From Puniceicoccales bacterium (GTDB lineage: Bacteria; Verrucomicrobiota; Verrucomicrobiia; Opitutales; JAIRKQ01), in NCBI GenBank assembly GCA_031268175.1, contig JAIRXR010000011.1, positions 149,229 to 213,228 of the forward strand: 64,000 nt of DNA. Direction: 5' to 3'. Shown here piece by piece: positions 1,662 to 53,053 of the stretch. How positions within the stretch are numbered: the stretch's first letter is position 1; each line of letters opens with the position of its first letter. The position numbers and the translations under genes are program-made. Under the pieces are notes generated by a model, which worked only from the letters and a program-made list of their open reading frames with translations, was not told where the DNA came from and did not search any database.

Positions 1662-2582
1662 ATGGAAAACAATCACAGTAGAATTAGCGAGGGACCGGGC
1701 GGCGGCGTGAATAAAAGCCAAAGCAAAGTTGGTTCGTTTTTCAGCTACATCATAGGGTGTATAACGAAGCCGTTCAAGTTCATATACGAACGACTCTCGG
1801 GGAAAAAACTGAAAGAACGCGGGGCGAAACAGACGAAGCTGGAACAACATGAGCAGCTAGACAACAAAGCAACTATCCAAGGGAAATTGAACGCAGGAAG
1901 TGAATCCGCGAGTAGTGTAGAGCAAGAAGTTGCCAGCCAACAAACCCCAATTGAACAAAATTCTAGCTCAACCGACTCGGTATCGACAGATATCTCACGA
2001 GAAAATGAAACGCCTGGTGCTATAACCGACACGCATCTCCCACTCCAAGGTGTACAGGAACAAATTGCATCGGCAGACGTACATGCGCCACTCAAAAATG
2101 TACAAACGCTGATTTCAGGCGAACCGGTATCGACAGATATCTTACGAGGAACTGAACCGCTCGATACGATGATCGAAATGATACAAAATCAAATCGATAA
2201 TACAAAAAATATGCGTTATACGTGTGGCGATGGCGTCAACGCCGCATCCAATATGCGCAATTCACTGTTGGCAAAGGCAGAAAAAAACCTTCGTACATTG
2301 CATGATACGCTAAAGGAACTGAATAAAGGAACCAGCATCGAAATTTCCAAGGAAAAAATTTTGGAAAACACTGCCAGTATTAAAAAACTTGAAAAAACCG
2401 TGGGAAAAATGAAAATCGCGAAAGGTACGCAAGAAACTCTTTTAGGTTTGATCCATGACGCAGAAAAAATACTGCTAGAATTACTGAACAAGACAAAAGA
2501 AAAGCAGGCAGAGAAAAAGCGACAAGAAATGTTCGACCGCATGCGAAGCCTGAAGACCCAGACAGGTAATAGTTGGAAGTAA
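1662..2582 (+). CDS. hypothetical polar/coiled-coil protein with no recognisable domain
   Basis: 306-aa ORF that is rich in S/T/N/Q/E/K with no TM segments. Its local GC is visibly lower than in neighbouring genes, and it contains a 23-bp direct repeat (about 1978-2000 and 2118-2141). Confidence 0.5.
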   Translation: MENNHSRISEGPGGGVNKSQSKVGSFFSYIIGCITKPFKFIYERLSGKKLKERGAKQTKLEQHEQLDNKATIQGKLNAGSESASSVEQEVASQQTPIEQNSSSTDSVSTDISRENETPGAITDTHLPLQGVQEQIASADVHAPLKNVQTLISGEPVSTDILRGTEPLDTMIEMIQNQIDNTKNMRYTCGDGVNAASNMRNSLLAKAEKNLRTLHDTLKELNKGTSIEISKEKILENTASIKKLEKTVGKMKIAKGTQETLLGLIHDAEKILLELLNKTKEKQAEKKRQEMFDRMRSLKTQTGNSWK

Positions 2583-2673
2583 AAAAATCGATTAATTAAT
2601 CATTCTCCACAGCATCCTTGCATTTGTGGTAATTTTGGCTAGACTCCGCGGGGAGTGTTGCTAGAAGGGTGCA

Positions 2674-3285
2674 ATGGGAAGTTATTTACCGCTACCGTAC
2701 ATATACGAAAAGGATGGCCGCAACGAACGGTCGTGGGACATTTACAGCAGGTTGCTGAAGGATAGAATCGTCTTCATAGGCACGCAGATCGATGATTTCG
2801 TTGCAAATGCCGTGGTCGCGCAGCTGCTGTTCCTGCAGATGGAGGACCCGAAAAAGGACATCCACGTCTACGTGAATTCCCCGGGCGGCAGTGTAACGTC
2901 CGGCATGGCAATCTACGATACCATGCAGTTCATGCGCTGCGACGTCGTCACCTACTGCATTGGGCAAGCGGCAAGCATGGGCACAATTTTACTCGCCGCC
3001 GGCACGAGGGGCAAGCGCTACGCTCTGCCGAATAGCAGAATCATGATACACCAGCCCACCGGAGGGGCCAGTGGACAGGCCTCGGACATATCCATTGCCG
3101 CAAAAGAGATTTTGCGCTGGCGCAAGGTGATAAACGAAATTCTCGCCAAGCATAGCTCGCGCAGCATCGAGCAAATCGAAAGGGATTCCGACCGCGACTT
3201 CTTTATGACGGCCGCCGAGGCAAAGGAGTACGGAATAGTGGATGCCGTGATAGAAAATAAGGCCGACATCCCGGAATCAAAGTAA
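2674..3285 (+). CDS. clpP: ATP-dependent Clp protease proteolytic subunit
   Basis: Conserved ClpP motifs are present: the GQAASMG active-site Ser, MIHQP His and the RDxxM region. Length is 203 aa. Confidence 0.9.
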
Positions 3286-3290
3286 TTTCT

Positions 3291-4028
3291 ATGCCTAACT
3301 ATACCAAAGAAACCATCGGCGTCATCGGCGGATGCGGAGTGGCTGCCGCCAACGAGCTGATGTGCCGCATCGAAAGAAAATTAACGGGATTGGGATGCAC
3401 CGATGACAGCCAGCAGCCGGAGATAATACTGTTTCAGGCAACACTCGCACCGAACAGAATCGCCTTCGCAGCCGGCAAAAGCACCGTCTCCTTCGTCCCA
3501 CGCTTCATCGAAGTCGGAAAAAAATTGAAGGCGTGCGGTGCGACGATCTGCTGCATTCCGTGCAACACCGCCCACTGCTCCATTGGCGAAATTGAGCGAG
3601 GTGTTGGGCTGCCATTCGTAAACATCATAGGCGAAACCATGGCGTTCATCGTAGCGGAGTATCCAGCAGCAAGGAAGATCGGCATACTGGGCAGCTCCGG
3701 GACGAAATTTTCAAAAATTTACCAAACGCACGCCGCAGAGATGAAACTTACCCACGAATTTCTGTTTCCAAGTGAGGAATTGCAGCGAACAGTCGATGGA
3801 GGAATAGCCGCGGTGAAAAGTGGACTACCCTACGCTTCACCTGCGAAGGCACGGGCATTTTTCACGGGAGCTGCCGACGATCTCACCGCGCAGGGTGCAG
3901 ACGTCATCGTGCTTGGGTGCACGGAAATTCCACTGGCCATGAGGGACAAAACCCACACGGGGAAGCCGATAATCGACACTCTATCCGTCCTCGCTGGAGC
4001 ATGCATAGCCAGGTGCAAGCGCGCCTAG
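3291..4028 (+). CDS. aspartate/glutamate racemase family protein (Asp racemase-like)
   Basis: GVIGGxG N-terminal motif, the PCNTAH and GCTE catalytic-Cys motifs and length all fit the Asp/Glu racemase family (PF01177). Confidence 0.65.
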   Translation: MPNYTKETIGVIGGCGVAAANELMCRIERKLTGLGCTDDSQQPEIILFQATLAPNRIAFAAGKSTVSFVPRFIEVGKKLKACGATICCIPCNTAHCSIGEIERGVGLPFVNIIGETMAFIVAEYPAARKIGILGSSGTKFSKIYQTHAAEMKLTHEFLFPSEELQRTVDGGIAAVKSGLPYASPAKARAFFTGAADDLTAQGADVIVLGCTEIPLAMRDKTHTGKPIIDTLSVLAGACIARCKRA

Positions 4029-4046
4029 TAGCCCACTGGCCGGCGG

Positions 4047-4367
4047 TCACAGTGCATTTATGGATGCGATGATGTCCGCCTTTGCCACCATCCCGACGGA
4101 GCGACTAACTTCGACGCCGTTGCGGAAATATATGATCGTCGGAATTGATTGTATGCCGAATTTTTCGGCAAGCTCCGGACATTCGTCGATGTTGACCTTT
4201 GCGACCACTGCGAAACCTCTAACTTCATCGGAAACTTGTTCGATAAGCTGGGCCATAGCCCGGCATGGCCCGCACCACGGCGCCCAAAAATCGACAACGG
4301 CAGCATCGCCACTATTCACGGTTTCAAAGAAATTTGTCGCATCAAGCTCTTTCATGGTTACTGTCAC
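4047..4367 (-). CDS. trxA: thioredoxin
   Basis: WCGPC active site, 106 aa, typical thioredoxin fold sequence. Confidence 0.85.
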   Translation of the reverse strand: MTVTMKELDATNFFETVNSGDAAVVDFWAPWCGPCRAMAQLIEQVSDEVRGFAVVAKVNIDECPELAEKFGIQSIPTIIYFRNGVEVSRSVGMVAKADIIASINAL

Positions 4368-4515
4368 AGAGCGATAGGATTATTCATGACTGGCGCAACT
4401 ATTTTGTGCGGCGCCTCCAAATGGCCTTCGATACCGTGCGCGTCGCTTGGCCAACTTTCCCAAGCTTCGCGAAAATTTTGGCGATAGTTTTCGGCGGAGA
4501 TTGTGCGCGAATTCG

Positions 4516-5229
4516 CTAGCTATCGAGTTCGGCAGAAAGAATTTCCAACTTTGTACGACGGTGATTAATTATATCGGAAATTTCTATTATTTTTGGAATC
4601 CAGACACCGTCAAAATTTTTGAACGAGCCGATGGAGATTCGCCTGCCTACCTGCCGCCTGTCCACCATTAAATCCACCCGCAAAATGATCATTAATTTTT
4701 CATCGATGAAAATCTTCATACTGGAAAATTTCACGCCTCCGATGCGAAGGTCTATCTGCCTGGAGAATTGCTGCATCGATCGACTGGCTACCTTCATCGG
4801 TCCGACATAGGAATATTGCTCATCGTCGGCAAAGATGAACAACAGGTCGCGGGGCGACAGGATCAAATTTTCGAAAAATGGTTCATCGACTTCGAAGGCA
4901 CTTGGCTCAATATTTTCCAGCTCTCCATCGCTCATGATGCAGCGTGCACCACCAAAATTTATGGAGAAAGTTTTTTGACCTTTGGTTGGGGCGAAAATCA
5001 GTTCGCCAAATTTTTTGCTACTTGCATTCAGCGGATCATACAACTTAACCTTGCACCTCCACTGCGAACTGATCTGGGCGGAATTCTTGCGCACATTTTC
5101 CAAAAATTCCTGCGCGCGCGCGTCGGACATGTAGCTCAGAACATGCAGGTCGCGTCCACACACCGGAGAGCAGATCAGCGCAAAGCACGCAGTGGCTATG
5201 GCAAAACGTGCTGACCTCGGCGCTTTCAT
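4516..5229 (-). CDS. secreted LolA-like / outer-membrane lipoprotein-sorting-like hypothetical protein
   Basis: N-terminal signal peptide (MKAPRSARFAIATACFALICSPVCG). The size and beta-rich composition resemble LolA/DUF4292-type proteins. The assignment is weak. Confidence 0.35.
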   Translation of the reverse strand: MKAPRSARFAIATACFALICSPVCGRDLHVLSYMSDARAQEFLENVRKNSAQISSQWRCKVKLYDPLNASSKKFGELIFAPTKGQKTFSINFGGARCIMSDGELENIEPSAFEVDEPFFENLILSPRDLLFIFADDEQYSYVGPMKVASRSMQQFSRQIDLRIGGVKFSSMKIFIDEKLMIILRVDLMVDRRQVGRRISIGSFKNFDGVWIPKIIEISDIINHRRTKLEILSAELDS

Positions 5230-5534
5230 TTATCAGGAGCTTTCGCGTCTGGAACAATGTTCTCAAGGTTTATGCCCTCGGCATAGCTCTGCCTGTGCGC
5301 ATTTGCACGGATGTGCAGCATGGACAGCACGAATGCTACGATAAAAAACGTGGCGATGCCGCTCACGGTCCACTTCGTCAACACCTTCGCCGTATCGCTG
5401 CCAAAGGCGAATTCAGCAGCCCCGCCTCCCAGGGAAAAACCCATTCCGGCATTGGCCGACGGCTTTTGCATAAGGATGACCAAGACGGTGAAAACACTCG
5501 TGCAAACCAGGAAAAAGGTCAAAAATATCACCAT
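5226..5534 (-). CDS. secG: preprotein translocase subunit SecG
   Basis: MVIFLTFFLVCTSVFTVLVILMQKPSANAGMGFSLGGGAAEFAFGSDTAKVLTKWT matches the SecG pattern (LLQxGKGxGxG...FGxxGxxxFLTR). The track ORF extends to 5600, and 5534 is the internal ATG consistent with SecG length. Confidence 0.6.
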   Translation of the reverse strand: MVIFLTFFLVCTSVFTVLVILMQKPSANAGMGFSLGGGAAEFAFGSDTAKVLTKWTVSGIATFFIVAFVLSMLHIRANAHRQSYAEGINLENIVPDAKAPDK

Positions 5535-25530: not shown

Positions 25531-25607
25531 CGGGGCGTAGCTTAGCCTGGCAGAGCGTTACGTTAGGGACGTAAAGGTCGCTGGTTCAAATCCAGTCGCC
25601 CCGACCA
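25531..25607 (+). tRNA. tRNA-Pro, anticodon apparently AGG
   Basis: 77-nt cloverleaf folded by hand. The acceptor is CGGGGCG/CGCCCCG with a C1:G72 pair and A73 (bacterial tRNA-Pro identity elements). The D loop has GG, the T loop is TTCAAAT, and the anticodon stem TTACG/CGTAA encloses the loop TTAGGGA. CCA is encoded. Confidence 0.7.
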
Positions 25608-25673: not shown

Positions 25674-26987
25674 ATGAGTTTACCCATGTCCACATTTCAG
25701 ACACTGCCGGGATTTAGAGAGTTCTATCCAGGAGACTGTGCCGTCAGAAATTTCATCTTCGACCACTTTCGGCGAACGGCGAAATCGTTTGCCTTCGAGG
25801 AATACGATGCCCCCATCATCGAGCCCATGGAACTGTTCACCGCAAAATCCGGCGATGAAATCGTCTCCCAGCTGTTCAATTTCGAGGACAGGGGCGGGCG
25901 ACAAATTTCAATGCGGCCGGAGCTGACGCCGTCGCTTGTCAAAATGATCGGCAATAGGGCGAATGCTATGAAAAAGCCGATAAAATGGTTCAACATCGGA
26001 GAACAATTCCGCTACGAGCGGCCGCAGAAGGGAAGGCTCCGCTCATTTTACCAATTTAATGCCGATATCATAGGAGACGATTCGCCGGGCGCGGACGCTG
26101 AAATCGTCGCCCTTGCCATTCAAACGCTGCGAAATTTTGCGCTGACGCGGAGCGATTTTCGCGTACGCCTTAGCGATCGCAAGCTATGGGCGGCATTTTT
26201 CGAGTCTCACGGCTTAGATGGCACCGATACCCAGGCCGCGCTGGTCGCAATTGACAAAAGCGAACGCGAAGGCGAGGCAAAGACGCTGGAAGCCGTGGAA
26301 AAAATTTGCCCATCCAACGCCGGGAAAATTTTCGAAGGAATTCAAAGGCTCAAAAATGTGCATTCGCCGCGGGACCTGGAAAAATTCTGCGCAACTTGTG
26401 AAAATTTAGCCGACGCTGCCAGCGGATGCGCCGAGTTTTTTGCACTGCTGAAGCGCATGGATGAGTTTGGCCTGTCGGACTTTGTGACCATTGATTTCGG
26501 CGTAGTCCGCGGCCTGGCGTATTACACGGGGTTCGTCTTCGAAATATTCGAAAATTCCGGCCAATCGCGCGCGCTGGCCGGAGGTGGAAGATACGACAAT
26601 CTGTTTGGGAAGCTCGGCTATTCCGGCCTGCCTGCCGTTGGATTTGCAATCGGTGATGTCACCCTGGGCAACCTCCTAGGCGAAAAAAATCTCATCCCGC
26701 CACTGCCAAGGGAAGTACGCTGCTTCATAGTCTACACCGAGCAGACGGAAAAAATTGCCATGGCGAAAGTGATTGCTCTCCGCGAACGCAACGTTGACGT
26801 TGACTATTGCCTAAGCCCCACAAGCTTTGGCAAACAGCTGAAAGCCGCTTCCCAAGTCGGTGCGAAATTTGCCATAATTTTCGGAGACGAAGAGGTGAAG
26901 GCCAACGGCGTAAAGATCAAAAACATGCTAAGCGGCGAAGAGAAGCCCGTTGAAATCAGCAAACTCGCGGAAGTGATTTCCCAATGA
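25674..26987 (+). CDS. hisS: histidine--tRNA ligase
   Basis: Class II motifs (FRYERPQKGR, GGGRYD), a HisRS-specific arrangement and a C-terminal anticodon-binding domain. Confidence 0.9.
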   Translation: MSLPMSTFQTLPGFREFYPGDCAVRNFIFDHFRRTAKSFAFEEYDAPIIEPMELFTAKSGDEIVSQLFNFEDRGGRQISMRPELTPSLVKMIGNRANAMKKPIKWFNIGEQFRYERPQKGRLRSFYQFNADIIGDDSPGADAEIVALAIQTLRNFALTRSDFRVRLSDRKLWAAFFESHGLDGTDTQAALVAIDKSEREGEAKTLEAVEKICPSNAGKIFEGIQRLKNVHSPRDLEKFCATCENLADAASGCAEFFALLKRMDEFGLSDFVTIDFGVVRGLAYYTGFVFEIFENSGQSRALAGGGRYDNLFGKLGYSGLPAVGFAIGDVTLGNLLGEKNLIPPLPREVRCFIVYTEQTEKIAMAKVIALRERNVDVDYCLSPTSFGKQLKAASQVGAKFAIIFGDEEVKANGVKIKNMLSGEEKPVEISKLAEVISQ

Positions 26988-27322
26988 CAGACTCCGAAGG
27001 CAGCATCGCGTGCGCCACTGAATATTTTTGGGATATTCTAAAGGGTGTCTACGATCCGGAAATCGGCGTAAACATAGTAGACTTGGGGATGGTTTACGCC
27101 GTGGATTTGAAGAGTGCTGACGGCGAAAAATTCGACGTGACCATCGAAATGACGCTGACTTCACCATGGTGCCCACTTGCAGACACCATAGCGGACGAGG
27201 TAAAAGCCGCGATTGGGAACACGGGAAAATGTTCAAATGTGGCCGTAAGCTTTGTCTTCGACCCTCCCTGGCACATCGACATGATAACAACCGAAGGAAA
27301 AATGCAGTTGGGCATATTTTAA
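26984..27322 (+). CDS. DUF59/MIP18-family Fe-S cluster assembly protein (SufT-like)
   Basis: VYDPEIGVNIVDLGMVY and TLTSPWCP motifs typical of the DUF59 family. Length is 112 aa. Confidence 0.65.
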   Translation: MTDSEGSIACATEYFWDILKGVYDPEIGVNIVDLGMVYAVDLKSADGEKFDVTIEMTLTSPWCPLADTIADEVKAAIGNTGKCSNVAVSFVFDPPWHIDMITTEGKMQLGIF

Positions 27323-27405
27323 TCCTTGCATAGGCATAAGTTTTTTGCTATTTTTTACAGAAATTTATAGATTAGTTGGAGCAGTTTAATAATTTAAGGA
27401 CGTAA

Positions 27406-27891
27406 ATGAGCAGCAGTAAAACAAAAGTTGAAGATGCGTTGAGCAATCTGGCGTTGCGGTTGAAGCTGGAGTCGTTGAAACTCAACGATCGCGACGAAAC
27501 CTATTTGCTATTTGATCAAAAATTTCACGTGACGTGTGTGTTTGACGAAGAAAAGGACGAATTCATTCTCACATCCATCGTCGGAGATTTGGCAAAAAAC
27601 TCGATTGAGGCCTACAAAAAGCTACTCAATGACAATTTTTTCTGGGCTGGCACGGCGGGGTCGCGCCTGTTCCTCGATCCCGGGAGCGGCGACGAACCGG
27701 ACACAATCACAATAAAGGAAACCATTCCCGTCGCAATGTTCGACGAGGAGCGGCTCTACGAGCGCATGGAAGATTTTGTGAACGCGGTCGAATATTGGAG
27801 CACTGAATATCCAAAATTGAGCCAGGGCGGTGGTGTGGCGGTGGCAGCTCCGCAGGTGAGCATCTCTGACTTCGGCATGATGAGCGCATAG
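27406..27891 (+). CDS. type III secretion class I chaperone-like protein (CesT/SycE family)
   Basis: 161 aa, acidic. The core ETYLLFDQKFHVTCVFDEEKDEFILTSIVGDL followed by LNDNFFWAGTAGSRLFLDP parallels the CesT pattern ([26 protein letters not shown] ... LNANLWFAENGG). Recognised from memory of the family, not by a search. Confidence 0.55.
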   Translation: MSSSKTKVEDALSNLALRLKLESLKLNDRDETYLLFDQKFHVTCVFDEEKDEFILTSIVGDLAKNSIEAYKKLLNDNFFWAGTAGSRLFLDPGSGDEPDTITIKETIPVAMFDEERLYERMEDFVNAVEYWSTEYPKLSQGGGVAVAAPQVSISDFGMMSA

Positions 27892-27905
27892 GCGTCCAAA
27901 TTTTC

Positions 27906-28505
27906 ATGTGTGCGTTGGTTGATTCGTGGTTGGTCGGCTTGAAGAGGGCTCCTATCTTGCATTCCGCGCGGCTGTTGCTACGCCCGGTGTGCGTCGGCGA
28001 CGTTGTGCACATTCAGAGCAGCATAGACGACAAGCGCGTGTGCGACAATCTGTCCTATGTGCCACACCCATACACAGTGGAAATGGCGGAAACCTGGACG
28101 CGCAACGTAAACTTCGGGATGGCCAATGGGTCCTGCTGCTACTGGACGATATGCGACCAAAAAACCGAAGAATTCATTGGATCGATGGGTCTGAGCATAC
28201 ACAATGAACAGGACGGTTGCGAAATGCACTACTGGGTGAACGCCGACCAGTGGAACAAGGGCTATTGCACTGAGGCCGCCAAGCGCACAATCGTGCACGC
28301 CTTTGAAGATATCGGAATGCACAGGGTATTCATTACGCACCGCGAAAACGGCCTGGCGTCGAAGACGGTGATTAAAAAATGTGGATTTGTCCTAGAGGGT
28401 ATCCTGCGGGACTCGCTGAAGCGCTTCGGCAAATTTGAAAACGTTGCAACATATAGCATGCTGCACGACGAATATCTTGCCATGAAAAAAAATGGTCTAT
28501 ACTAG
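27906..28505 (+). CDS. GNAT family N-acetyltransferase (RimJ/RimL-like)
   Basis: Acetyltransf_3-like layout with LLLRP near the N-terminus and an acetyl-CoA binding region (RVFITHRENGLASKTVIKKCGF). Confidence 0.7.
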   Translation: MCALVDSWLVGLKRAPILHSARLLLRPVCVGDVVHIQSSIDDKRVCDNLSYVPHPYTVEMAETWTRNVNFGMANGSCCYWTICDQKTEEFIGSMGLSIHNEQDGCEMHYWVNADQWNKGYCTEAAKRTIVHAFEDIGMHRVFITHRENGLASKTVIKKCGFVLEGILRDSLKRFGKFENVATYSMLHDEYLAMKKNGLY

Positions 28506-28511
28506 CGGCCG

Positions 28512-29597
28512 ATGAGACTGCTGCACCGATACGTGCTGCGACAGTGGCTGGCTACGTTTCTGTGTACGCACGCCGTGTTGACATGCCTCCTGCTGCTGGA
28601 GGATGTGTACAAAAATCTCGAATACTTTCTGAAAGCCAAGGTAACACTGGCGGCACTGGCGACGTACCATGCGTTTCTGGCGGCGTCGTTTTTTCCACTG
28701 ATTACTCCAGTGGCAATCTTCGTGTCAGTTCTGTTGTCCCTCGGCCAGCTGTATGGAAGGAATGAAATTACGGCGATGAAATCCGTCGGCATACACATTC
28801 TAGAAGTGTGCAAACCGCTTGCCGTGAGCACCGCGGTGCTCGCGGCGATCAATTTAATTTTCGAAGCCGCTGTGATGCCAGCAGCCACCGACTACGTAGC
28901 GGCATTTAGAACACGCACCGACGCAAAAATCGGCTACGCAACGGTTGCCAAGAAAATTGGGTTCTACAATCACCGGGACAACCGAATATGGTGTATGAAA
29001 AGCTTGGACAAACTGTCCTACGAAGCAAAGGATGTCCTCATCAGCTGCTACAACGAAAGCGGCCAAGAGGAGTTGCGCATACATGCGCAGGCGGCAAAGT
29101 TTCTTCCCGTGGAAAACTTTTGGCACTTTCAAAATTGCAGCCTAACGGCGTTCGACACTGGAACAGGATCGCCAAAAAGCGTTGACCTATTTACGGAAAA
29201 GGATTTCGAAAATTTCCGCGAACACCCAAAAATGATCATATCATCGCTGAAAAAAACGAGGGACCTGTCCTTTCACGATGTGAAAACTCTGCTGGAATAC
29301 GCCGGAACGGATTCCGTGGCGAACGCCTTCCGCGTGAGATTCCACGGCACATTCGCCAATGCTGCAAACTGCATAATCGTTATGTTTTTGGCAATTCCAT
29401 TCGCCGTAACCGGTGCAAAAATCAAACCACTCATCCGTACGGCAAAGGCGTGCGTGTTTTTGCTGCTGTTCCTCGTGCTGGACACGCTATTCGCGCTGCT
29501 TGGCAACGGAGGCGTATTGTCCCCAGCGGTTGCCGCCTGGGCGGCGAACGCCGTGATCCTACTTCCCATCGCGGGATTACTCCGCACAGCCATGTAA
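28512..29597 (+). CDS. LPS export ABC transporter permease, LptF/LptG (YjgP/YjgQ) family
   Basis: MRLLHRYVLRQ N-terminus, a layout of six TM helices with a central periplasmic domain, 361 aa. Confidence 0.7.
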   Translation: MRLLHRYVLRQWLATFLCTHAVLTCLLLLEDVYKNLEYFLKAKVTLAALATYHAFLAASFFPLITPVAIFVSVLLSLGQLYGRNEITAMKSVGIHILEVCKPLAVSTAVLAAINLIFEAAVMPAATDYVAAFRTRTDAKIGYATVAKKIGFYNHRDNRIWCMKSLDKLSYEAKDVLISCYNESGQEELRIHAQAAKFLPVENFWHFQNCSLTAFDTGTGSPKSVDLFTEKDFENFREHPKMIISSLKKTRDLSFHDVKTLLEYAGTDSVANAFRVRFHGTFANAANCIIVMFLAIPFAVTGAKIKPLIRTAKACVFLLLFLVLDTLFALLGNGGVLSPAVAAWAANAVILLPIAGLLRTAM

Positions 29598-29610
29598 AAC
29601 CGCCGCAAAA

Positions 29611-30144
29611 ATGCACAGCATCAGCGTCATAGATTTCGAGGGAAACAAGGGGCTGGGAATTTTCGAATTTGGCGTGGTGACGCTGCTGGATTTTGAAATA
29701 ATTTCCACGCGTACGGAATTTTGCCAGGGCACTTTTCACGAGCATTTGGAATATTTTCTTTCACTGCGTAGAACCGGCCTGCTGGGCGCACACTCCGCCC
29801 AGACGGAGGATGGTTTGCTGCGCCATTACTGGGCATCTCCCGGGCTGGTTCCAACTTTTGCCGGCGGCCAAATGGTGCCGTCATGGGGGCCGTGGGCGGA
29901 CACGAAATTGATCCATAGAAAGCTATTTCCGCAGCTACAATCCTACGAATTGGAGGATTTGGTAGCCTCATTTGCGCTGTTCCCGGAATTGGAAAAATTG
30001 GCAAAAAAATACTGCTGCCCAGGCGGCACGAAATTTCACAGTGCCCTATTCGATGCCCTCGCAACTTCATTGCTGCTTCAAAACTTACAAAAGAATTTCG
30101 CCAATGTTTCCCTGGAAACGCTGCTGGCAATTTGCGAAAAATAA
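29611..30144 (+). CDS. DEDDh-family 3'-5' exonuclease (DnaQ-like)
   Basis: An Exo I-like VIDFEGN (DxE) motif and an Exo III-like HSALFDA (HxAxxD) motif. The 3' end of this gene is duplicated at 31375-31479. Confidence 0.55.
   Translation: MHSISVIDFEGNKGLGIFEFGVVTLLDFEIISTRTEFCQGTFHEHLEYFLSLRRTGLLGAHSAQTEDGLLRHYWASPGLVPTFAGGQMVPSWGPWADTKLIHRKLFPQLQSYELEDLVASFALFPELEKLAKKYCCPGGTKFHSALFDALATSLLLQNLQKNFANVSLETLLAICEK
30021..30126 (+). repeat. direct repeat copy A (3' end of the exonuclease gene)
   Basis: About 80% identical to 31375-31479 by manual alignment (cgaaatt(t/c)cacagtgc...aatgttt(c/t)c(c/t)ctggaaa(c/t)gctgct). Looser similarity with an indel continues to about 30165/31515. Confidence 0.7.
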
Positions 30145-30462
30145 TGGCAAAAACTAGTTTTCATTGCCAAGAACCGACCATCGCACTGCATGCGTCGCAT
30201 GGTCGCCAGTGTAACAACAAATTTATCTAACAATTGGAAACGCAAATAGCGCTGTGAGCACATGTCGTGGCGAACCGGTACGTGTTTCCAATTTTACATG
30301 CTAAACGGCGTTGCATATTGCAAAAATCTTAGCTTCGCAGTTGTTCCAAGCAAAAGAAATACCGTTGAGCTTTTATCGTATATAAAAAACAAAACTTATT
30401 TTTTATTGACAATTTAATTTTGACGATGTTTGTCGTTTTACACAGCCAAAGAAAGATTAGTT

Positions 30463-31179
30463 ATGTCAAATGATATTAGAACACTAAGTAACGATATGTC
30501 AAACGCCGTTAACAAAATGATTAACAGCATCCAAGGTAGATTGCACAAAATCGATAGTTTAGGAAAGGAATTTTCTGCTGAAAAAAAGGGAAATGGTCTT
30601 TCTCCGTCTGTATCTAAAACACGTGAAACACCCGCAACAGCGCGAACGTCCGTTTCCAATTCCAATGTACCTTTAAACAAGGGCATTCCACCGAGGCCAA
30701 ACAACAATCCCTCTACGGTTCAAGTCGTAAGACAAGAACCCACAAATTTACCAGCGGCGCGGCGATTGTTGATCGATGAGGAAATAGATAAAAGACTCAT
30801 TGAGTGTAAAAAAGCTTTCGATGAGAATAATGGAAACGGAAATACTGTAATCGAGACTGACACAAAGATCGCCAGTATTGCCTATAATGCGTACTTTGAT
30901 TTACTTACAGAATATACGAAAGATGGAGATGTAATTTATGTCGCAGATGTCGGTATTTTTTATGAAAAAGCTAGAATACTTGGACTTGTGTTCAGCTGCT
31001 ACGCAAACCACTCTATGAAAAACTGTATGAATGCCGTTCTTAGCACTGTAACAACTGGTAAAAAAATTTCACGCGAAATATCGAAATTCTTTAATGTCCC
31101 ACAGAAAGAAGCTGAAAAACAATTAGAAGAGATTTGGCTCGACGAACTGGATGCCTTACTAGACCGCTTAGAAGACTAA
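30463..31179 (+). CDS. hypothetical protein carried on the low-GC insertion, with an S/N/T-rich disordered N-terminal region
   Basis: ATG at 30463 (MSNDIRTLSNDMSNAV...). The track ORF begins at a TTG at 30430. The gene is strongly AT-rich relative to the flanks, has no signal peptide or TM, and shows no recognisable domain. Confidence 0.5.
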   Translation: MSNDIRTLSNDMSNAVNKMINSIQGRLHKIDSLGKEFSAEKKGNGLSPSVSKTRETPATARTSVSNSNVPLNKGIPPRPNNNPSTVQVVRQEPTNLPAARRLLIDEEIDKRLIECKKAFDENNGNGNTVIETDTKIASIAYNAYFDLLTEYTKDGDVIYVADVGIFYEKARILGLVFSCYANHSMKNCMNAVLSTVTTGKKISREISKFFNVPQKEAEKQLEEIWLDELDALLDRLED

Positions 31180-31192
31180 TGAGTTATCATGG

Positions 31193-31393
31193 CTAGTTTT
31201 TACCGTGCCAATGGTAAATGTTTTCCATGAGATTTATCACTAGCAAAAATATCACAATAACGGCAGCGGCGACGATGGCAAAGGACAAAGTTATAGCTGG
31301 TTCGACCATCGTCGTCAAAAATACTAGGCGATACCTAATTTTTTCATCGCAGATTTCGCCTATTTTCGCAATCCGCGGGGCGCGAAATTCCAC
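31193..31393 (-). CDS. small hydrophobic hypothetical protein on the insertion
   Basis: 66-aa ORF with one TM helix (LSFAIVAAAVIVIFLLVINL). Its start lies inside repeat copy B. It could be spurious. Confidence 0.25.
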   Translation of the reverse strand: MEFRAPRIAKIGEICDEKIRYRLVFLTTMVEPAITLSFAIVAAAVIVIFLLVINLMENIYHWHGKN

Positions 31394-31479
31394 AGTGCGC
31401 TGTTCGATTCCCTTGCAACTTCACTGCTGCCCCAAAATTTACGGAAATATTTCACTAATGTTTCTCTGGAAATGCTGCT
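31375..31479 (+). repeat. direct repeat copy B (diverged duplicate of the exonuclease 3' end)
   Basis: In the exonuclease frame it encodes ...KFHSALFDSLATSLLPQNLRKYFTNVSLEMLLFI*, an intact-looking C-terminal remnant ending at the TAG at 31486-31488. Confidence 0.7.
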
Positions 31480-31544
31480 ATTCATTTAGGGCAAACAGAA
31501 TTCAAAATTAGTCTTTTGTTGACAAAAACGATTTTCTTCGCAGC

Positions 31545-32456
31545 ATGCGCCGCATGATCGTAGAGGTAATTTGTGTTATAGTTACTACGTTCTTTGCAGT
31601 TGCGCTGTTCGGTTTTTTCATAGTGAAGCAGCAAACGTGCGCGATCGTCGAAAGATTGGGCAAATTTTTCCGCGTGGCGCAGCCTGGGCTATCTTGGAGG
31701 ATCCCGTTCATAGACTCCATAGCTAGCAGGTTATCGTTTCGCATCCACCAACTGTACGTCGAAGTTGAGACGAAAACGCAGGACAATGTGTTCGTAAACG
31801 TCGCCGTCGCCGTGCAATACCGCGTGCTGAGTGATAAAGTCTTTCAGGCATACTACACTTTGCAGGATCACCAGGCGCAAATCAAATCCTTCGTCTTTGA
31901 CCTGGTGCGCGCCCAGGTGCCGCTGCTGATTCTCGACGACGTTTTTTCGAAAAAGGACGACATTGCCAATGCTGTGAAATCCAATCTGCTTGGGACCATG
32001 GAAACCTTTGGCTACGAAATCGTGGAGGCGCTGATAACCGACATCAACCCCGATGCCAACGTCAAAGCCGCCATGAATGAAATCAACACGGCCCAGCGCC
32101 TGCGCGTAGCCGCCACCGAGCGCGGAGAAAGTGAAAAAATCATCCGCGTGAAGCAAGCGGAAGCCGAGGCGGAATCCAACATTTTGCACGGCCGTGGAAT
32201 TGCCGGCCAGCGCGCAGCCATCATCGAAGGTCTTGGCCACTCCGTCGAAGAATTTGTCAAACAAATCCCCGACGCCCAGGCGTCGACCGTCATGGAAATG
32301 GTGATGCTTATCCAGTACATCGACACGCTGAAGGAGATCGGCGGCAATGCGCGGGCGAGCGTCGTTTTCGTTCCGCATTCTCCGGGCAATTTGAAAGACG
32401 TCAGCGAGCAAATTCGCGAAACAGTATTCGCCGATAAATTTACTGGTGGAAAGTAA
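31545..32456 (+). CDS. SPFH/Band 7 (stomatin/prohibitin-like) domain protein
   Basis: An N-terminal TM helix, then an SPFH core (IVERLGKF...) and a coiled-coil Ala/Glu-rich tail. Confidence 0.8.
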   Translation: MRRMIVEVICVIVTTFFAVALFGFFIVKQQTCAIVERLGKFFRVAQPGLSWRIPFIDSIASRLSFRIHQLYVEVETKTQDNVFVNVAVAVQYRVLSDKVFQAYYTLQDHQAQIKSFVFDLVRAQVPLLILDDVFSKKDDIANAVKSNLLGTMETFGYEIVEALITDINPDANVKAAMNEINTAQRLRVAATERGESEKIIRVKQAEAEAESNILHGRGIAGQRAAIIEGLGHSVEEFVKQIPDAQASTVMEMVMLIQYIDTLKEIGGNARASVVFVPHSPGNLKDVSEQIRETVFADKFTGGK

Positions 32457-42862: not shown

Positions 42863-43033
42863 CTATCCCTTTATTTCCCGGTGCAGCGTGTGGCGCCTGA
42901 GAAATTTATTAAACTTCATCTTCTCAACGCGCTCCGTCTGAACCTTCTTATTGCGCGTTGACATGTAACGGGAAACCGGCTTTCCCTCTTTTTTGGCCTC
43001 CGTGCACTCTAAAATTATGTACTCTCTTGGCAT
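42863..43033 (-). CDS. rpmG: 50S ribosomal protein L33
   Basis: [18 protein letters not shown]...[10 protein letters not shown] matches L33. The track ORF extends to 43051. Confidence 0.8.
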
Positions 43034-43285
43034 GGCATCAGTTATTAACAACTAGGTAAATTTTACCAATTAAAAACTCAACAAAAATTTTGAAATAAAT
43101 TAGAAATATACCTGCCTGTCGTCGAAATTTGCGCATCCGCCGGGTTTTTAGATCCGGCCTAATTTTTTGAACGGCGGCAATGGCGAAATATTTGCACAAA
43201 TCACAAATTTGAAATTAAATTTTACAAAAAAAAGATTGCAATATTTTCATAAATTGGCAAGCTTGTCAACTGAACGGAGATTGGC

Positions 43286-44509
43286 ATGAACATTAAAGCT
43301 ATTCATATGGCATCCCTTTCGGGAAAAAATCCATCTCGAAAAATTGATGGCAGAGCGATTATAAGTAGCGCTGGCACACCGGGCCAGGTAAAAGCACCAA
43401 AGGCGGCTGAGGCCAGGAGCATCGTTCCTGCGAAGCCGCAGCAAATTTTCACCGCGCCTGAACAGTTGCTGCAAGAAACGAAACCATTGGCGTGCAGATT
43501 AGCGACTGCGCCGATCACACCTAAATCGACCGCTGCAAAGTCGGACAAATCAAATATTTTACCGCTCAATCCAATTGCAAAGCTCCCGGGAAAGGCACCA
43601 CTTTCGAACCCACCGCAAACGCCAGCCACGCCGAACGACAAACGAAAACCATCGGACGCCGAAATCACCAATAGACTACTTTCGATTAAAAATCCGAAAT
43701 TGTCAATTAGCGCACCGGAACATGGCAAGGATTTTTACTTCGAACAGCAGAGAAATGGCAGCATTTGCGGTCTGTGCGCCGCACGCAACTACGTCGGCGC
43801 ACCGTGTGTCTCGCTGAAAACTTTAAACAATATAAAGAGAAATCACTTCGCCGGGAAAGCCGTACTGGCCACGGCGTGCGACCACATCAACAACGCGCTT
43901 GCGATACTCATGCCGCAGATGAAAAAAATAGTGACCGAAGGCAAACTTTCAAAAGCTCCAAAAAATTCAATGGAATTGCTGGCGGAATTGTCCCGCCTGG
44001 CAACCGCAACTGTCCAGGATGGGGAAAAAGTTATCGACGCCATCAACGCCGTTCTTCCGGCGCTCAACGCGGCTGGACTCGGGCAATCAAAGGCCTACGC
44101 GTCCATGCAAAAGCAAATTTACAGGATACGCAGCGACTGCCTCGACGTATCAGTTGGCGGAAGCGACCCTGCCTTCGTATTGGAAGCACTGCGACAAGTT
44201 GATCCAAATGTCGTCTCCGAACCCTACTACAAGCTGCCCAACGGCGGCAATATTTTCGAGACCCTCGATGCCAAGCACGCGAACCGCGGCATTGTTAGCA
44301 TCCGCGGCCATTTCGTCACCGTGCGAAAGGATGGACGCGGCCAATGGTATATCCTAGATTCTCTGCGGTCAAGCCCAACGCCGATAGCGAAAGGCTCCAA
44401 CGCCTTGCGGGGGTACTCCGGTGTAATTTACTCAACCGAAGACTCAATCGATCCAGTTCTCGTAGACAAACTGATAGCTGCCATGAACGAAGCATCCTCA
44501 GCATTCTAG
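43286..44509 (+). CDS. hypothetical protein with a disordered P/S/K/A-rich N-terminal third and a C-terminal Cys...His...Asp domain resembling a papain-like protease
   Basis: 407 aa with no signal peptide. Residues 1 to about 140 are low-complexity. The region QQRNGSICGLCAARNY resembles a papain/OTU-like Cys box, and IRGHFVTVRKDGRGQWYILDSL supplies His/Asp candidates. A GGAG RBS lies 7 nt before the ATG, which is preceded by a 250-bp AT-rich region. Confidence 0.45.
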   Translation: MNIKAIHMASLSGKNPSRKIDGRAIISSAGTPGQVKAPKAAEARSIVPAKPQQIFTAPEQLLQETKPLACRLATAPITPKSTAAKSDKSNILPLNPIAKLPGKAPLSNPPQTPATPNDKRKPSDAEITNRLLSIKNPKLSISAPEHGKDFYFEQQRNGSICGLCAARNYVGAPCVSLKTLNNIKRNHFAGKAVLATACDHINNALAILMPQMKKIVTEGKLSKAPKNSMELLAELSRLATATVQDGEKVIDAINAVLPALNAAGLGQSKAYASMQKQIYRIRSDCLDVSVGGSDPAFVLEALRQVDPNVVSEPYYKLPNGGNIFETLDAKHANRGIVSIRGHFVTVRKDGRGQWYILDSLRSSPTPIAKGSNALRGYSGVIYSTEDSIDPVLVDKLIAAMNEASSAF

Positions 44510-51741: not shown

Positions 51742-52260
51742 ATGTCAGCTTTTTTCTTCGCCACTCTGCACTACTCCACGCTAATTTTCTGCCAATTTTT
51801 CAACAACGCGACCCAATACCCGAGCGCATTGATCGTTCCGGTTGGGCTACTCATCCACGACCACGGAGATTATTTGGGACCAATCGGCGGGACAATTCTG
51901 TGCCTAGCGATTGGGTTGCTGCTCGATGCAACATTCTGGTTTTTGCCATTTGGATTCAGCGTAATTTTTTGCCTCTTCTTTCACTGTGCGCGAAAGCTAC
52001 TGGCAAACGCCGCAGCCGACAAAGCGATCCGCCATCGCATTGCCTGCGAGCAGCTCGCAAATATTTTGTACGTATTTTTTCTATTTGCCCTCGGAAGTGG
52101 ACCTTTTCCCGTGAGCAAATTTTTGGCAACGGCGGCACTGTCACAGGCAGCTGTGTTTTTTAGTTCGGGCCCAATGGCGCGGGCGCACGTAAAAATTGCG
52201 TCATTCTGCGACGGCTACGCAAAGTATGGCCGTCGGACAATCAAAAATTCGTTCCGTTGA
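51742..52260 (+). CDS. mreD: rod shape-determining protein MreD
   Basis: A 172-aa polytopic membrane protein starting 3 nt after the mreC stop, which is the canonical mreC-mreD order. The assignment rests on position and size. Confidence 0.5.
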   Translation: MSAFFFATLHYSTLIFCQFFNNATQYPSALIVPVGLLIHDHGDYLGPIGGTILCLAIGLLLDATFWFLPFGFSVIFCLFFHCARKLLANAAADKAIRHRIACEQLANILYVFFLFALGSGPFPVSKFLATAALSQAAVFFSSGPMARAHVKIASFCDGYAKYGRRTIKNSFR

Positions 52261-53053
52261 AGCTGATTCTTCCGAAGCTCTTCCTGGAATTTGCAAAGAG
52301 GAAATCCTTCGCTTTCGCCCGGTCCTTCGACGCCACGGCGTCGAATTTTTGAGCATCTCTCCCCTGGAAAGCGCGTAGTGTGACATCCAGAAATATCAAT
52401 TCTCCTGGTACTGTTAGTGATTTTCCAGATTTTTGATATGCCAACGCGCCGCCGAAGAAAATCATCCGTTCGTTCGAGGCGGTCATGAAAATTTTTCCAT
52501 TACGCTTCTTCACGGCGGCGCGAATTTTGAAATCGGAGAGTACAGTGTCGAATTTGCGAACCTGTTTGCAGGATTGGTCAGCGCCGTCGAAAAACTTTTT
52601 AAATGACGATCCATTGGCCAGCGCACCCTGCAGCGACAGCGTGGTGGTCGCATCGAGCAAAATCCTCGAAACTTCAACTTTTCCAGCTCCCAATTGGAGA
52701 ACGTCGTAGCACAGAGCCCTCGTCACGCTGGGCTCGCCGTTGTCGGCGACCGTCGCGAAGCAGAATATGGCGATGCCTTTGCCGTCGTCTCTTGCGCAAA
52801 TTTCAAAAATTGGCTGATTCTTGTCCAGCATGACAACCGACTCGAAATCGGTCCTCATGCCCTTTAACAGCGCGTGCAATGCGCAGTCGACGCCCCTAGC
52901 CTCTTCCATCGATTTCGCATTTTCAGCGGAAACATTGACGAGCTTTCCCCCTAGAAACACCACAACTACCACGATGCTCAGCGCTAGAATCACCTCGAAT
53001 AGCGAAAAAGCTCTACCTTTTCCAACTCCCAAACTACAAAATCCCTTTGACAT
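52241..53053 (-). CDS. prepilin-type N-terminal cleavage/methylation domain protein (pseudopilin-like)
   Basis: The N-terminal GKGRAFSLFEVILALSIVVVVVFL matches the class III signal (F-S-L-x-E with Glu+5) plus a hydrophobic helix. The remainder is a beta-rich periplasmic domain. Confidence 0.55.
   Translation of the reverse strand: MSKGFCSLGVGKGRAFSLFEVILALSIVVVVVFLGGKLVNVSAENAKSMEEARGVDCALHALLKGMRTDFESVVMLDKNQPIFEICARDDGKGIAIFCFATVADNGEPSVTRALCYDVLQLGAGKVEVSRILLDATTTLSLQGALANGSSFKKFFDGADQSCKQVRKFDTVLSDFKIRAAVKKRNGKIFMTASNERMIFFGGALAYQKSGKSLTVPGELIFLDVTLRAFQGRDAQKFDAVASKDRAKAKDFLFANSRKSFGRISFNGTNF

Follow-up and report, generated by a model that had tools for sequence, protein, structure and literature searches.

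An orphan gene on a low-GC insertion between two core genes of a termite-gut Puniceicoccales lineage, with a tentative reading as an exported effector-type protein

The window (the whole 64-kb stretch of DNA that was analysed) contains a 1173-nt low-GC segment that is inserted between two tightly packed core genes in one termite-gut Puniceicoccales lineage. The window is otherwise dense in housekeeping genes, including those for ClpP, RpsB, TsaD, GlmS, SerRS, FeoB, ProRS, HisRS, LptF/G, and GpmI, as well as RarA, LpxA, PBP2, GatB, LpxB, MreC, MurJ, SecDF, and RecJ. Upstream of the inserted segment lies an exonuclease-like gene (29611-30144, 177 aa) of the DnaQ-like exonuclease family, which matches PHROG 192; JGI labels its homologues ‘DNA polymerase III epsilon subunit-like’, and some of them match PF00929. 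Downstream lies a Band7/SPFH gene that starts at 31545. The features of the locus are as follows.

27406-27891, + strand: CesT-family (class I T3SS chaperone-like) gene, 161 aa, pI 4.4 (4.42), matching PF05932; outside the insertion
30025-30205, + strand: left duplication copy, with the functional exonuclease 3' end (its translation fits the family consensus), the spacer, and a dead first 16 nt of the Band7 CDS
30206-31378, no strand: unique inserted segment, 1173 nt, GC 0.38, without a mobility gene; the site is empty in six relatives
30463-31179, + strand: orphan ORF, 238 aa, ATG start and TAA stop; a compositional outlier with a homologue (P0002) at the protein level
31193-31393, − strand: doubtful 66-aa ORF with a single TM helix, convergent with the orphan ORF; GTG start in the second duplication copy
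31379-31560, + strand: right duplication copy, with a decaying exonuclease 3' end, a spacer with a TTGACA element, and the true Band7 start (31545); 80% identity to the left copy

The orphan ORF is a genuine protein-coding gene; its coordinates, its length of 238 aa, and both peptides quoted in the preliminary description were verified. At the composition of the ORF the probability of a 238-codon open frame is about 5e-8 per start (4.7e-8), and the remaining five frames across it hold 6-25 stops, so the ORF is not a chance frame. A TTG at 30430 is an alternative start that would add 11 residues to give a 249-aa protein. The same protein is annotated at NCBI/JGI as ‘MAG: hypothetical protein LBI61_03880 [Puniceicoccales bacterium]’, encoded on a 271-kb contig. 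The foreign composition previously ascribed to the ORF was borne out: GC is 0.388 and GC3 0.347, against 0.516 ± 0.024 and 0.605 ± 0.044 for the other ORFs of the window (n = 50), which corresponds to z = −5.3 and −5.8 and makes it the strongest compositional outlier in the window.

The exonuclease-like and Band7 genes are 1400 nt apart in the window. In 6/6 readable junctions of related loci (L003, L004, L006, L007, L008, and L009) the site is empty and Band7 directly follows the exonuclease-like gene, with a spacing that ranges from a 4-nt overlap to 51 nt; these loci come from related termite-gut Puniceicoccales MAGs whose exonuclease is 61-73% identical to that of the window. These empty sites uphold the earlier proposal that the ORF is the cargo of a true insertion. 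The unique insert is delimited to 30206-31378 because 30025-30205 and 31379-31560 are copies of each other; the duplicated unit comprises the last ~40 exonuclease codons, the spacer, and the first 16 nt of the Band7 CDS, and due to this 181-nt junction duplication both flanking genes stayed intact. In a gapped alignment the copies are 80% identical over 176 columns; the first 101 nt align without gaps, and indels run from about 20 nt before the exonuclease stop codon on through the spacer. The exonuclease end in the right copy is considered to be decaying, since nearly invariant positions of the consensus are altered in it: FDALA has become FDSLA, Pro replaces a conserved hydrophobic residue, and a stop codon occurs prematurely. 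An assembly artefact was rejected, as a k-mer assembler would not be misled by repeats of only 80% identity whose exact matches reach about 10 nt at most.

The two ORFs scanned in 30206-31378, those of 238 and 66 aa, matched no integrase, recombinase, or transposase; the other ORFs of at least 40 aa in this segment are a few short overlapping ones. No Rfam family in or around the insertion reached its gathering score, the insertion site holds no tRNA, and tblastn gave no match that would indicate a phage or plasmid origin. A 21-nt inverted repeat (30415/31303) that flanks the orphan ORF was attributed to chance; by estimate a 3.5-kb stretch should contain about 2-3 such pairs, and seven inverted repeats of similar quality were listed. 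The insert shares with att-type islets at gene 3' ends its foreign composition, the empty site in relatives, and direct repeats that span a gene 3' end and leave the target gene intact; however, it has no integrase, transposase, or tRNA target, and its repeat is 181 nt long, spans two gene ends, and lacks a core that is perfectly conserved. Another difference from such islets is that an ORF is cut by the right edge of the insert, which suggests a captured fragment. The segment may have entered by a single crossover of a circular DNA that carried the junction, or by illegitimate recombination that homology facilitated once DNA had been taken up; alternatively, it may be what is left of a larger island that decayed.

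Two minor features are seen in the left copy. Its dead Band7 start (ATGCGTCGCATGGTCG...) opens a 19-codon frame (MRRMVASVTTNLSNNWKRK*) at 30190-30249 on the + strand, and its spacer displays TTGCCA where the right copy has TTGACA; the left-copy spacer could drive read-through transcription into the orphan gene.

The orphan protein can be divided into three regions.

30463-30585, + strand: residues 1-41, Ser/Asn/Ile-rich, pI 8.2; by composition a candidate Sec-independent secretion signal region
30586-30750, + strand: residues 42-96, basic Pro/Ser/Thr/Asn-rich disordered linker, 62% S+T+N+P+G+Q, pI 11.6
30751-31176, + strand: residues 97-238, conserved C-terminal domain, all-helical (six helices predicted), 36-39% identity to P0002

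The 19-residue Kyte-Doolittle mean of the protein peaks at 1.12; there is no hydrophobic segment and the protein is therefore considered to lack a signal peptide or TM helix, in agreement with the preliminary description. The same description held the first ~100 residues to be disordered. This stands for residues 42-96, which have no predicted secondary structure and a pLDDT of 34-42, but not for residues 4-41, where an amphipathic helix is predicted at low confidence (pLDDT about 45). The C-terminal domain is acidic (pI 4.75) and features the motif VADVG...FYE..LGLV(F/Y)SCY...ISK(F/Y)F.V.Q..AE..L..W. An AF2 model built from two sequences, the orphan protein and P0002, displays six helices with a pLDDT of 71 and a pTM of 0.70; a folded domain behind a low-complexity N-terminal part had been proposed and is supported. 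The fraction of S+T+N+I+P+Q in residues 2-31 is 0.50, the highest among 51 ORFs of the window, with Leu at 0.07; this is a crude proxy rather than a validated predictor of secretion. By the same crude proxy the start of P0002 has a similar bias (0.57).

A word-indexed search of 5.8e9 proteins returned the orphan protein itself only, and a phmmer scan of 1.84e9 representatives returned one relative, P0002; the orphan status given to the protein at the outset thus holds, with a single distant relative. P0002 is a 348-aa protein (library-wide E 8.8e-5, pairwise E 1e-14) that is 36-39% identical to the orphan protein across the C-terminal ~140 residues. It is annotated as hypothetical protein LBR91_01470 of the Puniceicoccales MAG Nc350_bin191, where ‘Nc350’ denotes a Neotermes castaneus gut sample from an mBio 2024 study of termite MAGs (PMC11257099). 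The layout of P0002 is that of the orphan protein: a Ser/Thr/Asn/Ile-rich start, a low-complexity region of roughly 200 residues, and the conserved domain; linker 42-96 is not conserved in P0002, and no real alignment exists there. A profile of the C-terminal domain made from the two sequences found nothing further in the protein database, the GTDB species genomes, or the JGI metagenome contigs, and the family is therefore considered tiny and lineage-restricted. From these comparisons the orphan protein and P0002 form a two-member family that occupies different loci and has a fast-evolving N-terminal half. The P0002 gene lies near cmk-glmS, beside orphan genes of 187, 717, and 73 aa, in what looks like a small accessory island; these neighbours (2085-5233 of locus L001) have no Pfam family. 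The exonuclease locus of Nc350_bin191 (L005) reaches the contig end before the junction. That locus also has three Sel1-repeat ORFs upstream of ProRS (68-2117), which are absent from this position in the window; the Sel1 repeat is eukaryote-like and often seen in host-associated bacteria.

Neither the orphan protein nor P0002 has a match above threshold in Pfam, NCBIfam, PHROGs, or PADLOC. The best Pfam match of the orphan protein, DUF7329 (PF24015; E 0.08, 12.8 bits against a 27-bit cut-off), weakly aligns residues 133-235 to profile positions 41-143; it was treated as noise, since it falls below the cut-off and P0002 has no such match. Comparison of the C-terminal domain model gave no specific fold match, and the domain, in which the preliminary description recognised no motif, likewise gave no confident match to profiles. 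The suggestion that the protein could be a contact-dependent toxin found no support, as no toxin or trafficking domain (Rhs/YD, PAAR, LXG, WXG100, CdiA-type, and others) was detected with Pfam, NCBIfam, or PADLOC. The orphan gene is new and unclassified; the class to which it belongs, lineage-specific accessory or effector-candidate genes, is a familiar one.

The differences between the duplication copies are distributed 6/6/14 over codon positions 1/2/3, a pattern that fits one selected and one drifting copy; neutral sites would have accumulated roughly 0.15-0.2 substitutions each since the event. The insertion appears to be old, because the copies have diverged by about 20% and the redundant copy is decaying. 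When unconstrained copies of the ORF were simulated, 0.15 substitutions per site left 0.7% of them open and 0.20 left 0.1%; indels, which the non-coding part of the repeats does show, were not included in the simulation. Because only this small share of neutral copies stayed open, the orphan gene is probably under purifying selection. If the copies were already divergent at integration, as donor and recipient alleles, the age would be overestimated and the argument for selection weakened; maintenance of the gene is independently supported by its protein-level conservation with P0002. These results bear on the idea of a non-functional relic, in which the ORF would be junk DNA acquired so recently that its frame has not yet been broken. 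Such a relic would fit the single occurrence of the ORF, the failure of a consensus scan of the + strand to find a promoter-like site for it, and the lack of a strong Shine-Dalgarno sequence upstream; it is nonetheless decidedly improbable, as the conservation with P0002 extends over about 140 residues, the 714-nt frame has no indel while the flanking duplication has diverged by 20% with indels, and the domain model reaches its pTM of 0.70 from only two sequences.

The 66-aa ORF lies 13 nt from the orphan ORF, tail to tail, and spans the insertion junction, since its GTG start sits in the right duplication copy. It has one clear TM helix and sub-threshold matches driven by it, namely T2SSF (E 0.022), GspF (E 0.064), KwaA (E 0.0013), and a holin (E 0.06); the matches to PF00482 (15 bits against 25) and TIGR02120 (12.5 against 424) fall at the extreme C-terminus of both profiles and may reflect the TM helix alone. 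A PDB search with this ORF gave no match. From its sequence the ORF would be spurious, or else a truncated membrane-protein gene of which the tail is left; the latter would suggest that the insert is a captured fragment. It had earlier been put forward as a possible partner or immunity-like protein, and the proximity of the two ORFs together with the TM helix and weak membrane-protein matches would suit a toxin-immunity or toxin-antitoxin pair. This pairing is considered highly improbable: gene pairs of this type are not typically convergent, the 66-aa ORF owes its present form to the insertion junction and has its start in the duplicated flank, no counterpart was found next to P0002, and no toxin, immunity, or defence domain was found.

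The CesT-family gene is a genuine member of its family, as had been suspected of the chaperone-like gene near the orphan ORF; it matches PF05932 with 50 bits against a cut-off of 22 (E 3.9e-13) over profile positions 2-118 of 119, and its best PDB sequence match is the T3SS chaperone-like ExsC (E 0.04). It belongs to a block of HisRS, FeS_assembly_P, CesT, GNAT, LptF/G, and the exonuclease-like gene (25674-30144 in the window) that is kept in eight related loci, down to 47% exonuclease identity, with CesT at the same position in L003-L006, L008, L009, and L011. The GNAT gene (Acetyltransf_3, 199 aa) starts 15 nt after CesT. Identity of CesT is 74-78% across the closer relatives, compared to 61-66% for HisRS, and 64% in L011, the most distant locus. 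The block as a whole is conserved across termite-gut Puniceicoccales MAGs, and GNAT, like CesT, is more conserved than HisRS. CesT was not found in this neighbourhood of free-living Coraliomargarita. The linkage between chaperone and orphan gene that had been drawn from their 2.5-kb distance does not hold; the distance is considered coincidental, because the CesT block is conserved where the insertion is absent (the six loci with a readable junction). The insertion itself has no chaperone-like ORF. The CesT-family gene is the sole hint, at the level of sequence, of possible type III secretion in the lineage.

The orphan protein is tentatively put forward as a candidate exported effector-type protein, with a T3SS as the likeliest route; this is possible, although short of probable. 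The reading is plausible because of the architecture of the protein, the composition of its N-terminus, its lineage-restricted fast evolution, and the conserved CesT-family protein. In such a mechanism the N-terminus would be recognized by a Sec-independent system, most plausibly of type III and served by the highly conserved CesT-family chaperone of the lineage; chaperone binding or competence for unfolding would reside in the disordered linker, while the helical domain may be a protein- or membrane-binding module in the recipient cell, where the exported protein would act as a host- or partner-interaction protein. Non-flagellar T3SSs are known from Verrucomicrobia (PMC3459982), and related Opitutales MAGs from termite guts are considered putative endosymbionts of protists (PMC11257099). 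The related reduced-genome Opitutales family UBA9783, which may not be the family of this MAG, is described as having type IV pili and no flagella, in a paper that never uses the word ‘secretion’ (PMC12306168), a point against the effector reading.

No gene of a T3SS apparatus or other specialized secretion system was found among the about 50 ORFs scanned in the 64-kb window, or in roughly 120 kb of related loci. An ATP-synt_ab gene in L011, considered as a candidate for SctN, is Rho. The absence of secretion genes from the window and loci, the lack of any sequence or fold similarity to described effector families, and the unlinked CesT gene count against an effector. The same points favor a non-secreted, lineage-specific cytoplasmic protein, which would act through its helical domain, for example as an adaptor or regulator, or as the product of a maintenance or anti-defence gene left behind by a mobile element that has decayed; the resemblance of the insertion to a captured fragment or a decayed island without mobility genes also suits this explanation, which is about as likely as the effector reading. 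Against it, the Pro/Ser/Thr/Asn-rich linker is hypervariable in length, about 55 aa here and about 200 aa in P0002, and long linkers of this kind are unusual in bacterial cytosolic proteins; furthermore, nothing in the orphan protein matches a phage, a plasmid, or a defence system.

Chlamydial and other PVC type III effectors offer the closest comparison for the effector reading, being orphan, lineage-specific proteins that are served by CesT/Slc1-type chaperones encoded away from their substrates. The orphan protein has in common with them its orphan status and lineage restriction, an uncleaved Ser/Asn/Ile-rich N-terminus with no Sec signal, and a disordered region ahead of a helical C-terminal domain; its genome likewise encodes a conserved acidic CesT-family protein (pI 4.4). 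It differs in that injectisome genes were not observed in the window and related loci, in that its secretion is putative, and in that it resembles no described effector in sequence or fold; the organism is also an Opitutae-type verrucomicrobium, and no report of a T3SS in Opitutales/Puniceicoccales was found in the literature. If the protein is exported, it would give access to the host interactions of verrucomicrobial symbionts with reduced genomes that live with termite-gut protists, and it would indirectly point to a type III or other Sec-independent system that works in the lineage. A further-reaching proposal would make the orphan protein and P0002 the founding pair of a new effector family in Opitutae/Puniceicoccales of termite guts, which are probably associated with protists. 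A type III system, of which none is described from this lineage, would deliver both proteins, and the unusually conserved core CesT-family chaperone would serve them; the effector gene would move between genomes and loci without a recombinase, through duplicative insertion that copies about 180 nt of target. Taken together, this is unlikely. The locus itself represents a well-delimited, lineage-specific gene gain through a small, integrase-less, duplicative insertion between essential genes, and selection apparently maintains the gene.

Several other features of the window were recorded. A 306-aa ORF at 1662-2582 (+ strand), just upstream of clpP, ranks second among the compositional outliers of the window (GC 0.433, GC3 0.44); Pfam gives no match for it, its start is Ser/Asn/Gly-rich (MENNHSRISEGPGGGVNKSQSK), and it is unrelated in sequence to the orphan protein. 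It may be another foreign orphan or effector-like gene. A 407-aa ORF at 43286-44509 (+ strand), between fabD and gatB, belongs to no Pfam family and begins with a Ser/Thr-rich N-terminus (S+T+N+I+P+Q 0.47); GC is lower (0.45) in the stretch that precedes it, given as 43001-44000. The spacer between ProRS and HisRS contains a tRNA-Pro (anticodon AGG) at 25531-25607 (+ strand). Lastly, a 270-aa ORF at 52241-53053 (− strand) displays a weak N-terminal methylation motif of the pseudopilin type and no other family, which would fit the presence of type IV pilus or T2SS-like genes in this lineage.
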